From Verrucomicrobiota bacterium (GTDB lineage: Bacteria; Verrucomicrobiota; Verrucomicrobiia; Limisphaerales; Palsa-1400): a stretch of 64,000 bases of DNA. A program made the position numbers and the translations under genes. Of this stretch, positions 8,045 through 13,203 are shown in pieces. The notes under the pieces were generated by a model, which saw nothing but the letters and a program-made list of their open reading frames with translations, was not told where the DNA came from and searched no databases. The stretch covers positions 210,232-274,231 of the forward strand of contig JBEKYR010000008.1 of the NCBI GenBank assembly GCA_049510745.1, in the 5' to 3' direction. The stretch's first letter is position 1, and the number at the start of each line of letters is the position of its first letter.

Positions 8045-9529
8045 CTACGGGGCTTTCGAGGCGATTTTGCGCAGTTCCGTTTTCAGGATCTTGCCCGTCG
8101 CGTTATGCGGCAGGGCGGACACAAAAACCACGCGCCGGGGAATTTTGTAGTCGGCCAATCGCTCGCGCGCGAAGGCCAGCAGCGGCCCCTCCTCCAGTTG
8201 GACGCCCTCGTGCGGCGCGACAAACGCCAGCGGCTGCTCTCCGCGCCGCGCGTCGGGCACGCCGATGACGGCGGCTTCCCTGACTCCGGGATATTTGTAG
8301 AGGATTTCCTCAATCTCGCGGGGATAGACGTTGATGCCGTTGACCAGGAGCATGTCCTTCTTGCGGTCGGTGATGTAGAAGTAACCGTCGGCGTCACTGT
8401 GGCCGATGTCGCCGGTCAAGAGCCAGCCGTTGCGCAGGACGTGGGCTGTGGCGGCGGGCTGATTCCAGTAGCCCTGCATGACGTTGGGGCCGCGCACACA
8501 GACTTCGCCCGTCTGCCCTGGCGGCAGCATCTCCCCGGCCTCGTTCTGAATGGTGACCTCGACGTTGGCAATGGGTTTGCCAATCGATCCCGCCTTCCAC
8601 GGGCCGCGAATGGGCTGAAAGGAAACGACCGGACTGGCCTCGCTCAAGCCGTAGCCTTCGAGCAGCGGAATGGGAAAGCAGGCGGTGAATTCCCGCAGCG
8701 TTTCGGCCGGCAACGGCGCGCCGCCGCTGATGCACAGGCGCAACGGAAAGGCGGGCGGCACCGCGCTGCGCGCCAGGGCGCGAAAGAATTGCGGCACGGC
8801 CGGCAGCAACGTGGCCTGATGCTGGAGGATTTCCAGGAGGACATTCTTGGGCGGATGCAGCGTTTTAATGAGAACCATTGAGCCGCCGACCAGCATCGGC
8901 AGCAGCAGGCCGACCGTCAGCATGAAACTATGAAACAGGGGCAGGACCACGACAAACCGATCCGTCCCCACCGCTTCGAGCGCCACGCGGCAACTCTGCA
9001 CGTTGGCCAGCAGATTGCCGTGGGAGAGCATCGCCCCCTTGGGATGGCCGGTGGTGCCCGATGTGTAAACGAGCACCGCCAGGTCCGCCTCGGTCAAATC
9101 GGAAGGGGCCGCCGCGCCGGCGTCCTCCAGCCGGCCAAAGGAGCTGGCGCGGAGCGATTTCAATTCGGGGCGCCCGGCCGCCAATTTTGCCAAACCCTCA
9201 TCCATCGTTTCATCCACAATCAGAACATTGATGCCGGCATCGGCGAGAATGAAGCTGACTTCAGCCGGCTTGAGAAAATTGTTGATCGGCACCGCCACCG
9301 CGCCCGCCTGTAAAATGCCGAAGAGCGCCGGGACAAATTCCGGGCAATTCCTGAGCCAGATTCCGACCCGGTCGCCGCGCCGGACGCCGAAGCCAGCGCG
9401 CAACCGTTCCGCCACCCAGAGGGACTGCGACCAGAGATCGAGGTAAGAGAAGCGGGCGTCGCCCCAAAAGAGGGCGGTCTTGGCGGGATCGCCGCGGGCG
9501 TTGGAAGCGAAAGCGAGTGCCAGGTTCAT
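8045..9529 (-). CDS. Long-chain-fatty-acid--CoA ligase (AMP-binding)
   Basis: YTSGTTGHPKG, EGYGLSE, WLLTGDIG, DRKKDM and TGKILK adenylation motifs. Confidence 0.93.
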   Translation of the reverse strand: MNLALAFASNARGDPAKTALFWGDARFSYLDLWSQSLWVAERLRAGFGVRRGDRVGIWLRNCPEFVPALFGILQAGAVAVPINNFLKPAEVSFILADAGINVLIVDETMDEGLAKLAAGRPELKSLRASSFGRLEDAGAAAPSDLTEADLAVLVYTSGTTGHPKGAMLSHGNLLANVQSCRVALEAVGTDRFVVVLPLFHSFMLTVGLLLPMLVGGSMVLIKTLHPPKNVLLEILQHQATLLPAVPQFFRALARSAVPPAFPLRLCISGGAPLPAETLREFTACFPIPLLEGYGLSEASPVVSFQPIRGPWKAGSIGKPIANVEVTIQNEAGEMLPPGQTGEVCVRGPNVMQGYWNQPAATAHVLRNGWLLTGDIGHSDADGYFYITDRKKDMLLVNGINVYPREIEEILYKYPGVREAAVIGVPDARRGEQPLAFVAPHEGVQLEEGPLLAFARERLADYKIPRRVVFVSALPHNATGKILKTELRKIASKAP

Positions 9530-9689
9530 TGAAGTTCCGAATGTTCCCAAGGGGGCCGGAGAAGCGCAAGGTTGAAAGGGTCGAAATATCAGGGTAGGGG
9601 CCGCTTTGGTTTGCTTTGCCTGATCTTGGGTTGTGGGCTACTTTGAATTTCCGCTGGCACGTTGACCGCAAAAGCGGCACGTTGCCAGC

Positions 9690-9821: not shown

Positions 9822-9868
9822 TTTTCGGGCTTTCTTCATGGGCGGAATTGGGGCTTTATGCGGTGATT

Positions 9869-10468
9869 ATGCCGAAACCGCAACCGAAGCGCTCCAAGGT
9901 CAAAAAGGACACCCCAACGCGTAGGCTTAAATTTGCTGGTCAAATCAGGGAGTGGGCCAAAAAAGATATTGTGACCGCAACATTTTTCGCGCAAAGAGGG
10001 AGAATATTCAGCGACATGGAATTGGCATTGGTGTGTTATTACTTCATCTGGGATAAATTTAAAGTCCTGCAATCCGGTCAAAATCCAATCGAACAAGGAA
10101 TTTTGGGGGAACTATGGACAAAGGAGGTGTCGGACGCATACTCAAAAAACATTTCGCAACTTTTTGCCCAAGATCGAAGAAAACTATGCGGGATATTCTT
10201 GAATGCAGTGGAAAACCGCGATGCTGGAAAGATTTTAGAGATTGCCAAGGCGGTCAAATTCTTAAAGACATTCAAAGAGAATAGCGACCATTGCCGGGCT
10301 GGCATCTTGGGTTTGAAAAGTGTACTGGATAAAAATAACCGAAAAATGCCAATCAGCGAACTGGCGCGGGCGGTCAAATGGCCTGCAAGTGACGCAAAGC
10401 ACGGATTTTGGAGACTTCGCAGAATCGCCAAGGAATTGAATTTCCCGCTGGAGCCTCAACACAAATAA
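9869..10468 (+). CDS. Hypothetical protein with possible C-terminal HTH
   Basis: AT-rich ORF; C-terminal MPISELARAVKW...LRRIAKELNFP looks helix-turn-helix-like. Confidence 0.6.
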   Translation: MPKPQPKRSKVKKDTPTRRLKFAGQIREWAKKDIVTATFFAQRGRIFSDMELALVCYYFIWDKFKVLQSGQNPIEQGILGELWTKEVSDAYSKNISQLFAQDRRKLCGIFLNAVENRDAGKILEIAKAVKFLKTFKENSDHCRAGILGLKSVLDKNNRKMPISELARAVKWPASDAKHGFWRLRRIAKELNFPLEPQHK

Positions 10469-10683
10469 GGCCGTGCAAACCGCGATAATGTGTTGAGTGT
10501 GTTTCAACTTCATAGGGTAAATTCCCCTCACGGAACTGCAATTCCGCAATAGGCGCATGTAATTTAGAAACCGCTTTGTGTCCAATGCCCGCGCCGGGTG
10601 TTTTGCAGTTGGATGCGAGGCGGTTTTCGTTTTTGCGATTATGAAATTAAAACGGTCGCGCTTGCGTAGCCATTAAGGGCGGA

Positions 10684-10759
10684 TACGTGGAGCGCGGACA
10701 AATGGGCACGGCCCGCTTGGTGATTCTTTGGCAAGACAACCAAGCGGGCCGCAAACGTA
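10684..10759 (+). ncRNA. Structured RNA segment directly upstream of the tRNA-like gene
   Basis: Perfect 13-bp stem CGGCCCGCTTGGT (10709-10721)/ACCAAGCGGGCCG (10739-10751), inner TCTT/AAGA stem, outer TACGT/ACGTA stem. Confidence 0.4.
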
Positions 10760-10765
10760 ATGAAT

Positions 10766-10861
10766 GGGGCCAGTCCCCTTTGGCTGGACGCCGTAACGCG
10801 GGTTTAGACCGCTAGGGGCATTGTGTAATGCAATGGGGTTCGACTCCCACTGGTTCCACCA
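10766..10861 (+). tRNA. Non-canonical tRNA-like gene (allo-tRNA-like 9/3 fold, Ala identity G3:U70/A73, possible anticodon UUA)
   Basis: GGGGCCAGT pairs with ACTGGTTCC (9 bp), followed by A and an encoded CCA. T arm GGG-TTCGACT-CCC; V-like arm CATTG/CAATG; GCGG-GTTTAGA-CCGC hairpin; TGGC-TGGAC-GCCG D-like hairpin. Confidence 0.65.
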
Positions 10862-11017
10862 TTTACGCGGATACAGAACCACAGTCTGCCGCTGAAAGCA
10901 AGACTTTTCTGGCCCATTTCGACTGCGACAGGCCAGATTTGACGATTGTCGCATCAATTGTTTTGCGCTCGCCAGCCGTGAACCGGAGTTTTATGGCGTG
11001 CAAACAGGACAACATAC

Positions 11018-11566
11018 CTAGTCCGCCATCTCGCCGGTAAAAAACTCCACTATTTGTTCTTTTGTTCGCGGCTTGGTGCCGCGCTTCTGCACTACTTCGT
11101 GGTAAACTAAATAGAATCCAGTCCAGACGTCAGATTCATCGCCCTTTTGCTTTCTTATCACCTGGTCAAAACACGTCTCCCAGTAATATTGAATGTAAAT
11201 CGAGTAGTCGCAATAAATCCTACTTTTCTGCATTTCATGGTCTTCAAGCGCGGAGCCAAGATCATTAAAGAAATCAATTATATCCTCGCTTATGTCGGCT
11301 GGTTTATCCAGGTTTTCCAAGATTATTTTTGCGGCTTTTTGGCGCTTTGGTTCAAGCCGTTCCCAGCGTTCCTCGAAGTAATTGGCCCTTTCTTCGGCTT
11401 TTTCACCCCACTTGAACCGAGATATGAGAACGCAAAGGATTGCGCTTATGATAAACCATTTGCCTGCAATCGCGTGGTCTTGTGATGCGATGGCGGCAAA
11501 AAGCGGGGCACCAACTAACACAACCAGCCCCTCCGCTCGAATCCATCTGTGGAGCCAAGGAAACAT
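11018..11566 (-). CDS. Membrane-anchored hypothetical protein (DUF4760-like)
   Basis: Two N-terminal hydrophobic helices, then IIDFFNDLG...IY.DYSIYIQYYW resembling DUF4760. AT-rich. Confidence 0.6.
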   Translation of the reverse strand: MFPWLHRWIRAEGLVVLVGAPLFAAIASQDHAIAGKWFIISAILCVLISRFKWGEKAEERANYFEERWERLEPKRQKAAKIILENLDKPADISEDIIDFFNDLGSALEDHEMQKSRIYCDYSIYIQYYWETCFDQVIRKQKGDESDVWTGFYLVYHEVVQKRGTKPRTKEQIVEFFTGEMAD

Positions 11567-11689: not shown

Positions 11690-11727
11690 TTACAAATCGC
11701 GCCGCAGAGCGGCGGCGCGATTTGTAA
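11690..11727. repeat. Perfect 16-bp inverted repeat
   Basis: TTACAAATCGCGCCGC (11690-11705)/GCGGCGCGATTTGTAA (11712-11727), 6-nt loop. Confidence 0.8.
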
Positions 11728-11862
11728 GATCTCTCAATTTCTCCGTTGACAGGTTCTTGGCTGAAAACGCGGCGGGCGCGATTACAAGCTTCAAAGTAGC
11801 CCACTACCTGGCCTTGACTGGGCTTGACCGGACAAGGAGGAAGGCAGGATGAATTCAGCGGT

Positions 11863-13203
11863 TCAACGGCGGCGCGCCGTCAACGAGGAGGGTCGGGATT
11901 TCTTCCGGGTGCTTTTCGCCGCCGCCGGTTTTGCGCCTGTCCGGGCGTGTTGTTCCATCGCGGCTTCGACCCGGGCGCGGTCGGTTTCGACAAAGCACTG
12001 GAGTTGTTCGGCGGAGGGCAGCACCGTGAGATAGCGGGAAACGAAGAGGCGGTTGTCCATGCCCGCCGTGGCGAACTGCACCTTGGTGTGGTCCTTGTCG
12101 CTACAGAGGAGGATGCCGACGGGCGGTTGATCGCCCTCCGCCATCATGCGGTCCTTAAAATAGTTGAGGTAATAATTCATCTGGCCCGCGTCGCCGTGTT
12201 GGAAGGGGCGGACTTTCAGATCGAGCAGGACGTGGCAACGGAGGCGCCGTTGATAGAAGACCAAATCCACGTAGTCGTGCTCGTTGCCAAGGGTCACCCG
12301 GAACTGGCGGGCCTCGAAACAAAAGCCCGTGCCGAGTTCGAGCAGGAATTTTTGCAGGTGGTCGAGCAGGGCCGTTTCGAGATCGCTCTCGGTGTATTGC
12401 GGCAATTGGGCGAGGCCGGTGAATTCGAGGACGTAGGGATCGCGGATCAGGTCTTCGATGGTTTCCTGCGGCTCTTGAGCGCGGGCGCGTTTGATGACGG
12501 CGGCTTTATTTCTGGAAAGACCGGTCCGCTCAAAAAGGAGTGACCCAATCTGGCGTTGAAGCTGGCGCTTCGACCAGTTGCCCTTGAGACACTCGTTTTC
12601 ATAGAAGGCGCGCTTTAGCGGGTCGTCGATGCGAATGAGTTCAAGGATGTGCGTCCAGGAGAAATGAAGGACGGCTTCGGGAGAAAGAGGCGTTATGCCG
12701 GAAGATTGGCCAACCCGTGGTTGGCCAATTCCGTAACCGGTGGTGACGGAATGACCAGCCAGACCAGAGGTTGCCGGCGCGCTCAATTCCGTAAGCGGTG
12801 AGGACGGAATTTTGCCGCCAAAAGCGCGCCGGGAAATCCTCACCGGTGGTGAGGATTTTTGACTCCCACCGCCTGGCAGAAGGAGACGATTGCCCAATTC
12901 CCTCACCAGCGGTGAGGAAATCTTTGAGCCAAGTTGAGGATAAACTCCGTAGAGCAGGCGTGTGCGTTCCAACATCTGAACGCTTAAGCCACCGATCCCA
13001 CGTTGTTTCAGGTCAGCGGCAAGCCGTGACAACAATCGGACTCCGTATTTCGCGCGATCCTCGCCATTCTGCTCGAATTCCACGAGGTATGCCCCAACCA
13101 GCCAGTTACGGATGACGAGGGATTGATTGACGACGGCGGCGGCGCGACCGAGCAACTCCCGGCTGGCCGAATCAATCGCTTTGACAAGTTGATTGTATCT
13201 CAT
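11863..13203 (-). CDS. DUF1016/YhcG family PD-(D/E)XK nuclease with expanded internal region
   Basis: RNWLVGAYLVEFEQNGEDRAKYG, FSWTH, WSKRQLQRQI, IRDPYVLEFTG, FLLELGTGFCFEARQ, VDLVFY and GQMNYYLNY motifs. Confidence 0.92.
   Translation of the reverse strand: MRYNQLVKAIDSASRELLGRAAAVVNQSLVIRNWLVGAYLVEFEQNGEDRAKYGVRLLSRLAADLKQRGIGGLSVQMLERTRLLYGVYPQLGSKISSPLVRELGNRLLLPGGGSQKSSPPVRISRRAFGGKIPSSPLTELSAPATSGLAGHSVTTGYGIGQPRVGQSSGITPLSPEAVLHFSWTHILELIRIDDPLKRAFYENECLKGNWSKRQLQRQIGSLLFERTGLSRNKAAVIKRARAQEPQETIEDLIRDPYVLEFTGLAQLPQYTESDLETALLDHLQKFLLELGTGFCFEARQFRVTLGNEHDYVDLVFYQRRLRCHVLLDLKVRPFQHGDAGQMNYYLNYFKDRMMAEGDQPPVGILLCSDKDHTKVQFATAGMDNRLFVSRYLTVLPSAEQLQCFVETDRARVEAAMEQHARTGAKPAAAKSTRKKSRPSSLTARRR
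12728..12921. repeat. Four degenerate 25-bp palindromes (11-3-11) with unique spacers inside the DUF1016 gene
   Basis: Units at 12728-12752, 12786-12810, 12834-12858 and 12897-12921; spacers of 33, 23 and 38 nt. Confidence 0.8.

Follow-up and report, generated by a model that had tools for sequence, protein, structure and literature searches.

What is a 96-nt segment that carries the alanine marks of a tRNA, and a UUA triplet where an anticodon should be, doing between the inverted repeats of a small transposon? We addressed this question for positions 10766–10861 of a 64,000-nt stretch (hereafter the window) of the genome of a Verrucomicrobiota bacterium of the order Limisphaerales (assembly GCA_049510745.1, contig JBEKYR010000008.1, positions 210,232 to 274,231, forward strand). 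A preliminary description, drawn from the letters of the window, had taken the segment for a mobile tRNA mimic with a 9/3 acceptor/T geometry, an extra CCCCT/AGGGG helix and a possible ochre anticodon. We found that the RNA belongs to a conserved family of tRNA-like RNAs, rewired and of alanine identity, which are cargo of Verrucomicrobiota IS1-like transposons; covariation and genomic context make us nearly certain of this. The function that we favour, weak insertion of alanine at UAA, is a prediction to which we give less than even odds. The RNA is laid out as follows.

10766–10861, plus strand: tRNA-like RNA, 96 nt, with acceptor, extra helix, D-like and anticodon-like hairpins, V arm, T arm, A73 and CCA
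10766–10774, plus strand: acceptor 5′ strand, 9 bp with 10849–10857, including G3:U70 and G4:U69
10775–10779, plus strand: extra helix 5′ strand, partner strand at 10814–10818
10781–10793, plus strand: D-like hairpin, 4 bp, 5-nt loop containing GG
10798–10812, plus strand: anticodon-like hairpin, 4 bp, with the 7-nt loop G-U-UUA-G-A at 10802–10808 and UUA at 10804–10806
10819–10835, plus strand: V arm, two covarying pairs and a variable loop
10836–10848, plus strand: T arm, 3-bp stem and 7-nt T loop
10858–10861, plus strand: discriminator A73 (10858) and encoded CCA (10859–10861)

All the coordinates and features given for the RNA in the preliminary description were borne out on the sequence. 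So was the expectation of a weak call or none from tRNA finders: ARAGORN was silent at 10766–10861, and the sole match in an Rfam scan was a 13-nt T-arm stretch under the tmRNA model (E 0.22). The 96 nt had a folding z-score of −3.14, and none of 200 shuffles was as stable. A descriptor of the layout (9/3 branch, extra helix and V arm) had a single match on both strands of the 5.6-Mb host genome, namely this locus, and the RNA is single-copy there. Contigs of DNA run X8 span the RNA without a differing letter, so an assembly artefact is unlikely. The minus strand was ruled out as the structured one, sequence variation yielding G-U pairs on the plus strand, and antisense open reading frames (ORFs) across the RNA were ruled out as well, the lengths of homologs varying by 1–3 nt.

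A covariance model built from this one sequence recovered three homologs in three other genera of the same bacterial family (3 of 30 family genomes), and an exact pattern, applied to 185,579 species genomes, matched at three loci. These hold the same RNAs, and each is titled Verrucomicrobiota. A looser pattern applied to metagenomes gave 17 loci, comprising ten new members, six repeats of known RNAs and one RNA outside the family (L103:3001-3107, a 107-nt G3:U70 RNA with CCA in a tRNA cluster). The 13 further distinct homologs bring the family to 14 with this copy; the RNAs are 93–96 nt long and 71–86% identical to it. The metagenome pattern, from which ten members stem, fixed acceptor positions 1–4 and 7–9 and the T stem; it left free the extra helix, the D and anticodon-like hairpins, the V arm and A73, and permitted C70. 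BLAST-type searches of 401 phylum and 301 order genomes returned no full-length homolog and mostly short 3′-end matches, apparently to tRNA-Ala, while covariance model R2 gave just three weak, non-family matches in 151 order genomes. The family patterns matched viral contigs five, four and zero times over three scans with no family member among the matches, and annotated phages and plasmids contained no match to the RNA family.

Do the homologs keep the fold? When the 14 RNAs were segmented by hand, a procedure that favours the proposed fold, 404 of 406 stem cells were paired. On a model-fitted alignment, eight pairs changed on both sides as against 3.5 ± 1.0 after shuffling (0 of 500 as high; slid controls at most 2); these figures include no correction for kinship, and the tree has too little support for independent events to be counted on it. 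The homolog covariation check proposed for the CCCCT/AGGGG helix revealed compensatory changes, its first pair being CG in seven members and UA in seven, and its third CG in 13 and UA in one. Four of its five pairs hold family-wide (56 of 56 cells paired), whereas the fifth, U14-A49, forms in 9 of the 14. On bootstrap trees the CG/UA swap at the first pair requires three to four changes, with supported branches still compatible with one origin. The D-like hairpin, a 4-bp stem with a 5-nt loop in 13 of 14, covaries at two pairs (GC 4/AU 10 and GC 12/CG 2) and keeps its loop GG throughout. Two pairs also covary in the V arm, which has 5–6 bp, and there is one CG to AU change in the anticodon-like stem and a CG/UA change at acceptor pair 6. 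The nine acceptor and three T pairs are present in all 14, partly forced by the search pattern for ten members; the same ten had the GC pairs of the T stem (14/14) imposed. RNAalifold recovered five helices on the model-fitted alignment, where the D hairpin is misregistered, ten members being shifted by one column and the helix only 41% paired; it was recounted by hand segmentation. An alternative pairing that closes a TTAG tetraloop, and that had left the anticodon uncertain, is disfavoured: homolog L112 breaks its U-A pair, and L108 covaries once in the 4-bp register.

The proposed alanine identity marks were found in every member: G3:U70 in 14/14 although the pattern permitted C70, and A73 in 14/14 without being set by it. 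CCA is encoded in four. The loop reads G-U-UUA-(C/G)-A in 12 members and G-C-UUA-C-A in one, the last having a 6-nt loop without UUA; 13 of 14 thus retain UUA, in contrast to the V loop and one linker, which vary. G32 and A38 are present in all, and position 37 is C in nine and G in four of the 13 seven-nt loops. The 7/5 cloverleaf, pyrimidine 32, U33 and purine 37 of a canonical tRNA-Ala or ochre suppressor do not occur together here, and RF00005, like ARAGORN, made no call. Alanyl-tRNA synthetase (AlaRS) ignores the anticodon, which suits a tRNA whose triplet is meant to mismatch its amino acid. G3:U70 is its main determinant (PMC9976931; here and below, papers given by accession are cited for their accessible parts).

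The RNA sits in a 2,180-bp segment with 48% GC, as against 60% for the genome, between 19-nt inverted repeats. The segment and the surroundings of the RNA contain the following features.

9621–9628, no strand: left copy of a decayed 8-bp target-site duplication, 6 of 8 letters matching its partner at 11809–11816
9629–9647, plus strand: left terminal inverted repeat of the IS1-like element, 19 nt, 95% complementary to 11790–11808; loose contig ends at 9627–9629
9869–10468, plus strand: passenger ORF, 199 aa from ATG (206 aa from TTG at 9848), of no known family
10656–10697, plus strand: predicted upstream hairpin A, from the minimum free energy (MFE) fold of the upstream 110 nt; a like hairpin stands before most homologs (by eye, uncounted)
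10709–10751, plus strand: upstream hairpin B, 13-bp stem and 17-nt end loop, 14 nt before the RNA
10873–10901, minus strand: conserved downstream motif with a −35-like box at 10901–10896, a possible antisense promoter
11018–11566, minus strand: passenger ORF, 182 aa, N-terminal hydrophobic segments; atlas DUF4760 clusters at 0.93 and 0.91
11790–11808, minus strand: right terminal inverted repeat; loose contig ends at 11808 in runs X8 and X9

The mobility proposed for the RNA is supported by the inverted ends here and, in homologs, by IS1-like transposases and 8-bp target duplications. This copy's element has no transposase. A transposase match lies within ~1.3 kb of the RNA in 10 of the 14; this copy has inverted ends only, and three have neither in the DNA examined. 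In nine of those ten cases the RNA stands 250–450 nt upstream of the match on the same strand; in L104 the transposase is on the other side and strand. Target duplications of the IS1 family are 8–9 bp. Six RNA-bearing elements are complete, five with a perfect 8-bp duplication and this one with 6/8. Matching repeat-motif pairs border transposase-bearing elements, and elsewhere in the host genome one pair encloses a truncated transposase. Homolog transposases passed the PF03400 cut-off in two of three cases; NF033558 was the best match in two of two, at 49–73 bits against a cut-off of 100. This RNA family was absent from all of the 31 transposase loci and 15 inverted-repeat loci searched, and no empty-site joint was seen in the four DNA runs.

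The cargo ORFs, read by eye, vary between elements. ORF 9869–10468 had no Pfam or NCBIfam match and atlas matches at 0.81 or below, which are leads only; a similar-looking ORF, again judged by eye, lies upstream of a transposase in G637. ORF 11018–11566 gave SLATT_5 at E 0.002, far under the cut-off. A structured stretch at 10516–10633 ends in a U-tailed stem and is 74% identical in G637, there upstream of a transposase without the RNA; it is possibly a cis-regulatory leader. Just within the right end of the element, 11690–11727 forms a perfect 16-bp inverted repeat, and directly outside it a DUF1016/YhcG PD-(D/E)XK protein is encoded at 11863–13203 (minus strand), with internal 27-nt repeats at 12726–12921. 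At 9032–9067, within an acyl-CoA ligase gene, all four runs have many loose contig ends, apparently a widespread repeat.

The RNA does not travel bare. A stem of at least 11 bp stood within 85 nt upstream of 13 of the 14 family members, as against 2 of 53 host tRNAs; these hairpins have 12–15 bp, and their pairing is kept though their sequences differ. The downstream motif was present in 14/14 members versus 8 of 53 host tRNAs. As an antisense promoter it is a weak lead: the summed score was 166 versus a shuffle mean of 156 and maximum of 169, one of 14 sites was clearly above its own shuffles, and a consensus promoter scan gave no match at 10873–10901.

Related elements were found to carry other odd tRNAs. 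RNAs with G3:U70 and A73 on other scaffolds lie near the transposase at 4 of 30 order transposase loci (L118, L119, L134 and L143), and two inverted-repeat loci add L067 and L072. These six RNAs are 7/5 tRNAs or 71-nt minimal forms, and UUA is centred in four of them (L067, L119, L143 and L118), likewise in L180, which has no transposase in the DNA examined. A hairpin of 12–15 bp also precedes L067 and L134, both unrelated to the present family. In viral contigs a loop-blind minimal-form pattern had 12 matches, of which seven fitted by eye: three with a G-U-UUA-G-A loop (L165, L166 and L169), two of which had surfaced earlier in a loop-biased scan, one with CUA (L161) and three with sense triplets. 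Across the related scaffolds the triplets centred in the 7-nt register are UUA, CUA, GUA, UGU and UCC. The arm of L165 consists of four pairs, an internal loop, four pairs and a loop, resembling the extra helix plus the anticodon-like stem. This comparison suggests that the extra helix may form the lower part of an anticodon arm ten steps long, onto whose 5′ strand the D hairpin has been grafted.

Some of these RNAs deserve a record of their own. L067:2814-2889 (G603) is a 7/5 tRNA with G3:U70, A73, CCA and a C-U-UUA-G-A loop in a complete IS1-like element with an 8-bp duplication; judged on these features, it is the best candidate for a true natural alanine ochre suppressor. A 71–72-nt minimal alanine-identity class (L118, L072, L134, L160, L161, L163, L165, L166, L167 and L169), spread over IS elements and phage contigs, has a tiny D hairpin, a long arm with an internal loop, no V loop and varying triplets, and is mostly missed by ARAGORN. 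L117:50-120 (G463) is another minimal alanine-identity RNA, in a region without IS1-like transposase; before it stands what we take to be a hammerhead-like core (no Rfam match at gathering score in L115). Odd tRNAs without alanine marks lie in or beside IS1-like elements at L068:3310-3384, L069:6448-6641, L108:1276-1362 and L145:515-590. In G000, contigs C73–C75 bear tRNA arrays with 23 calls, one with a degenerate TTA anticodon (C73:2821-2897), and are probably phage or island; C6:20325-45070 has two tRNA-Ala(CGC) copies and a 3′ fragment, which suggests tandem integration at tRNA-Ala.

What, then, could the RNA do? We tentatively favour a weak alanine-inserting reader of UAA. The RNA would be transcribed together with the two upstream hairpins and excised by RNase P, its CCA being added or retained, and host AlaRS would charge it through G3:U70 and A73; the host encodes AlaRS, RNase P RNA and a CCA-adding-family enzyme. 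The extra helix would replace the D stem beneath the anticodon-like stem. Counted from the junction, the 7-nt loop would lie ten steps away (four pairs, two junction steps and another four pairs), and the ten bases between the loop and the next arm would equal the loop-to-T-stem count of an ordinary short-armed tRNA. A nucleotide other than A37 reduces suppressor efficiency, and G32 with C/G37 may hold read-through at a tolerable level. The element might benefit from addiction-like toxicity, or from mistranslation under stress or phage attack, which goes a step further than the decoding itself. In the allo-tRNA study, two 9/3 rows with UUA and G3:U70 were active in E. coli after change to amber; amber-changed 9/3 allo-tRNAs with G3:U70 inserted mainly Ala, one also Ser; missense allo-tRNA expression killed cells; and allo-tRNAs were linked to transposons and toxin-antitoxin loci (PMC5389517).

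Ochre suppression gains from a UUA that is kept and recurs in other scaffolds, and loses from G32, C37 and the nested fold. Several observations weigh against it. G32 is found in 14/14 and C37 in 9/13, yet neither G32 nor C37 occurs in any of 53 host tRNA calls; C33 stands in one member, and the loop of another is the 6-nt one lacking UUA. The 14 members are related, so that invariance is partly ancestry. We know of no counterpart of the nested helix among ribosome-active tRNAs, and the case made from arm lengths is one of counting rather than modelling. In the MFE fold of this copy, the D-like and anticodon-like hairpins give way to a single long irregular stem that buries the UUA loop, at −44.6 as against −38.7 kcal/mol for the two-hairpin fold (5.9 lower). 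The four-way junction of acceptor, extra helix, V arm and T arm is preserved in it, and has zero unpaired bases; the two-hairpin fold is nevertheless favoured because homologs show compensatory changes in the D hairpin (GC/AU and GC/CG) and one in the anticodon-like stem. TAA is the stop codon of 4 of 5 full-length transposases that neighbour the RNA, as well as of 753 of 2818 long frames in the host, and strong suppression would therefore be costly. In the element-borne transposases no in-frame TAA read-through target was noticed, and beside the homologs no conserved toxin, antitoxin or read-through target was seen. Moreover, six allo-tRNA(UAU) junction variants were inactive in translation (PMC5389517).

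A close rival, to which we give somewhat lower odds than to the UAA reader, is a mimic: a charged or chargeable non-decoding RNA that soaks up or distracts a tRNA-directed protein (an anticodon nuclease, a tRNA-modifying toxin, AlaRS or EF-Tu). The G-U-UUA-S-A loop would then be a protein-binding motif closed by a G-A pair, in keeping with the non-canonical G32/C37, the single C33, the single 6-nt loop, the short 4-bp stem and the nested helix; the G-1 tRNA1 species set a precedent for irregular tRNAs that are charged yet unused in translation (PMC5389517). A decoy, however, has no obvious need of alanine identity, the centred triplet varies among related scaffolds within an anticodon-like 7-nt register, and the RNA was not seen in the company of a cognate nuclease or toxin gene. 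The hairpins of 12–15 bp just upstream of 13/14 members, L067 and L134, and the same-strand transposase match downstream in 9/10, would instead suit a cis-acting module whose tRNA shape recruits RNase P and 3′ nucleases, so freeing an upstream hairpin RNA or cutting a transposase-bound transcript. We hold this to be improbable: processing requires neither G3:U70 and A73 nor an unchanging triplet in the loop, the RNA is missing from most related elements (0 of the 31 transposase and 15 inverted-repeat loci), L104 has its transposase on the other side and strand, and this copy has none.

Two further readings we regard as very improbable. Alanine identity combined with a doubtful anticodon loop resembles tRNAs diverted from translation, as would be expected of an alanyl donor for an element-encoded non-ribosomal transferase, an idea raised in the preliminary description. 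The surroundings of the homologs lend it no support: a conserved partner gene was not seen there, the cargo ORFs, read by eye, vary from one element to the next with no transferase in common, and both ORFs of this element match no transferase family. Even less credit goes to the view that the RNA is without function, being either what decay has left of a standard tRNA-Ala or tmRNA or a relic of an integration site. In favour of this view, its last 27 nt match tRNA-Ala of the host at 85%, and the element here has lost its transposase and has a decayed target duplication. Against this stand compensatory changes in five of the six helices and only two unpaired cells in 406; the host, besides, has its own tmRNA (contig C29) and tRNA-Ala genes elsewhere in the genome, and the RNA lies inside the element, not at its end. 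Decay of a standard tRNA or tmRNA is largely refuted by the covariation.

If UAA decoding is true, the RNA would be a natural tRNA with a non-cloverleaf junction, a natural UAA reader and possibly a new scaffold for code engineering, and it is predicted to permit occasional read-through of stop signals by the ribosomes of its peat-bacterium host. A bolder extension, which seems to us rather unlikely as a whole, is that the rewired topology (a perfect four-way and a nested three-way junction without D-stem stack) works on the ribosome, and that IS1-like transposons and some phages systematically traffic alanine-identity stop-codon readers on at least three scaffolds as a tunable mistranslation module, possibly checked by antisense transcription. 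If the RNA does not decode, it would be a conserved alanine-marked mimic of some partner. Standard tRNA finders overlook this RNA family, which thereby belongs to an unseen layer of mobile tRNA-like genes. Small bounded elements with and without the RNA make testable the question raised by allo-tRNAs, that is, why mobile elements carry mismatched tRNAs.

How does the family compare with known systems? Literature searches, with subscription papers mostly outside their coverage, returned no description of it. The tRNA-like domain of tmRNA shares G3:U70, A73, CCA and the T loop; the tag frame and pseudoknots are missing here, the geometry is 9/3 and not 7/5, and no tmRNA was called anywhere in the window. 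Allo-tRNA(UAU) 'five-stem-junction' variants and E-loop tRNA1 share irregular junctions, a link to transposable elements and doubtful use in translation (PMC5389517, PMC7609411). In E-loop tRNA1, found among 8/4 RNAs that lack a V arm and have serine-type identity, the extra element is a loop separating the acceptor from the D arm (PMC5389517, PMC7609411), unlike the helix enclosing both arms in the present family; the 'five-stem-junction' variants were compared by text only, and a similar junction is possible there. As for the carrier, transporter IS elements (tIS, IS1 family) have in common with ours inverted ends, an 8-bp target duplication and passenger genes (PMC7986276); the putative DDE transposase of the homologs has its best match in IS1 models. 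The terminal inverted repeats are present here, and the duplication is 6/8 here and 8/8 in the five other complete elements. Our elements differ in that their cargo includes odd tRNAs, the NCBIfam IS1 score is under cut-off, and this copy is without transposase.

The closest relatives in kind are the (9/3) allo-tRNAs, which share the 12-bp branch split 9/3, the long V arm, G3:U70, UUA, A73 in one published row, a soil habitat and transposon or toxin-antitoxin neighbourhoods (PMC5389517). Most of them have the serine identity of G73 or U73, and the alanine subset has G3:U70 (PMC5389517). Their published rows are plain five-arm cloverleaves with a longer D stem and tetraloop, a longer anticodon stem and a pyrimidine-32/A37 loop (PMC5389517). 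In the present family a sixth helix is nested within the fold, the D stem has 4 bp and closes a 5-nt loop, the anticodon-like stem is likewise of 4 bp, and its loop has G32 and C/G37. The 9/3 branch, the long V arm and the G3:U70 of the alanine subset were found; the tRNA-Sec-like D arm (long stem, tetraloop) and the longer anticodon stem with a plain cloverleaf junction were not, and we therefore class the RNA as working like an allo-tRNA and not as a member. In the accessible text and supplement of PMC5389517, the nested helix, the short D and anticodon stems, the G32 loop, a Verrucomicrobiota host and a bounded IS1-like carrier were not found; five short family motifs were absent from the supplement, and Verrucomicrobia went unmentioned. 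The 9/3 geometry, the alanine identity and UUA are already known from allo-tRNAs (PMC5389517). On the sequence evidence, then, the RNA is a conserved, mobile and structurally new variant of the class of mobile mismatched tRNAs.
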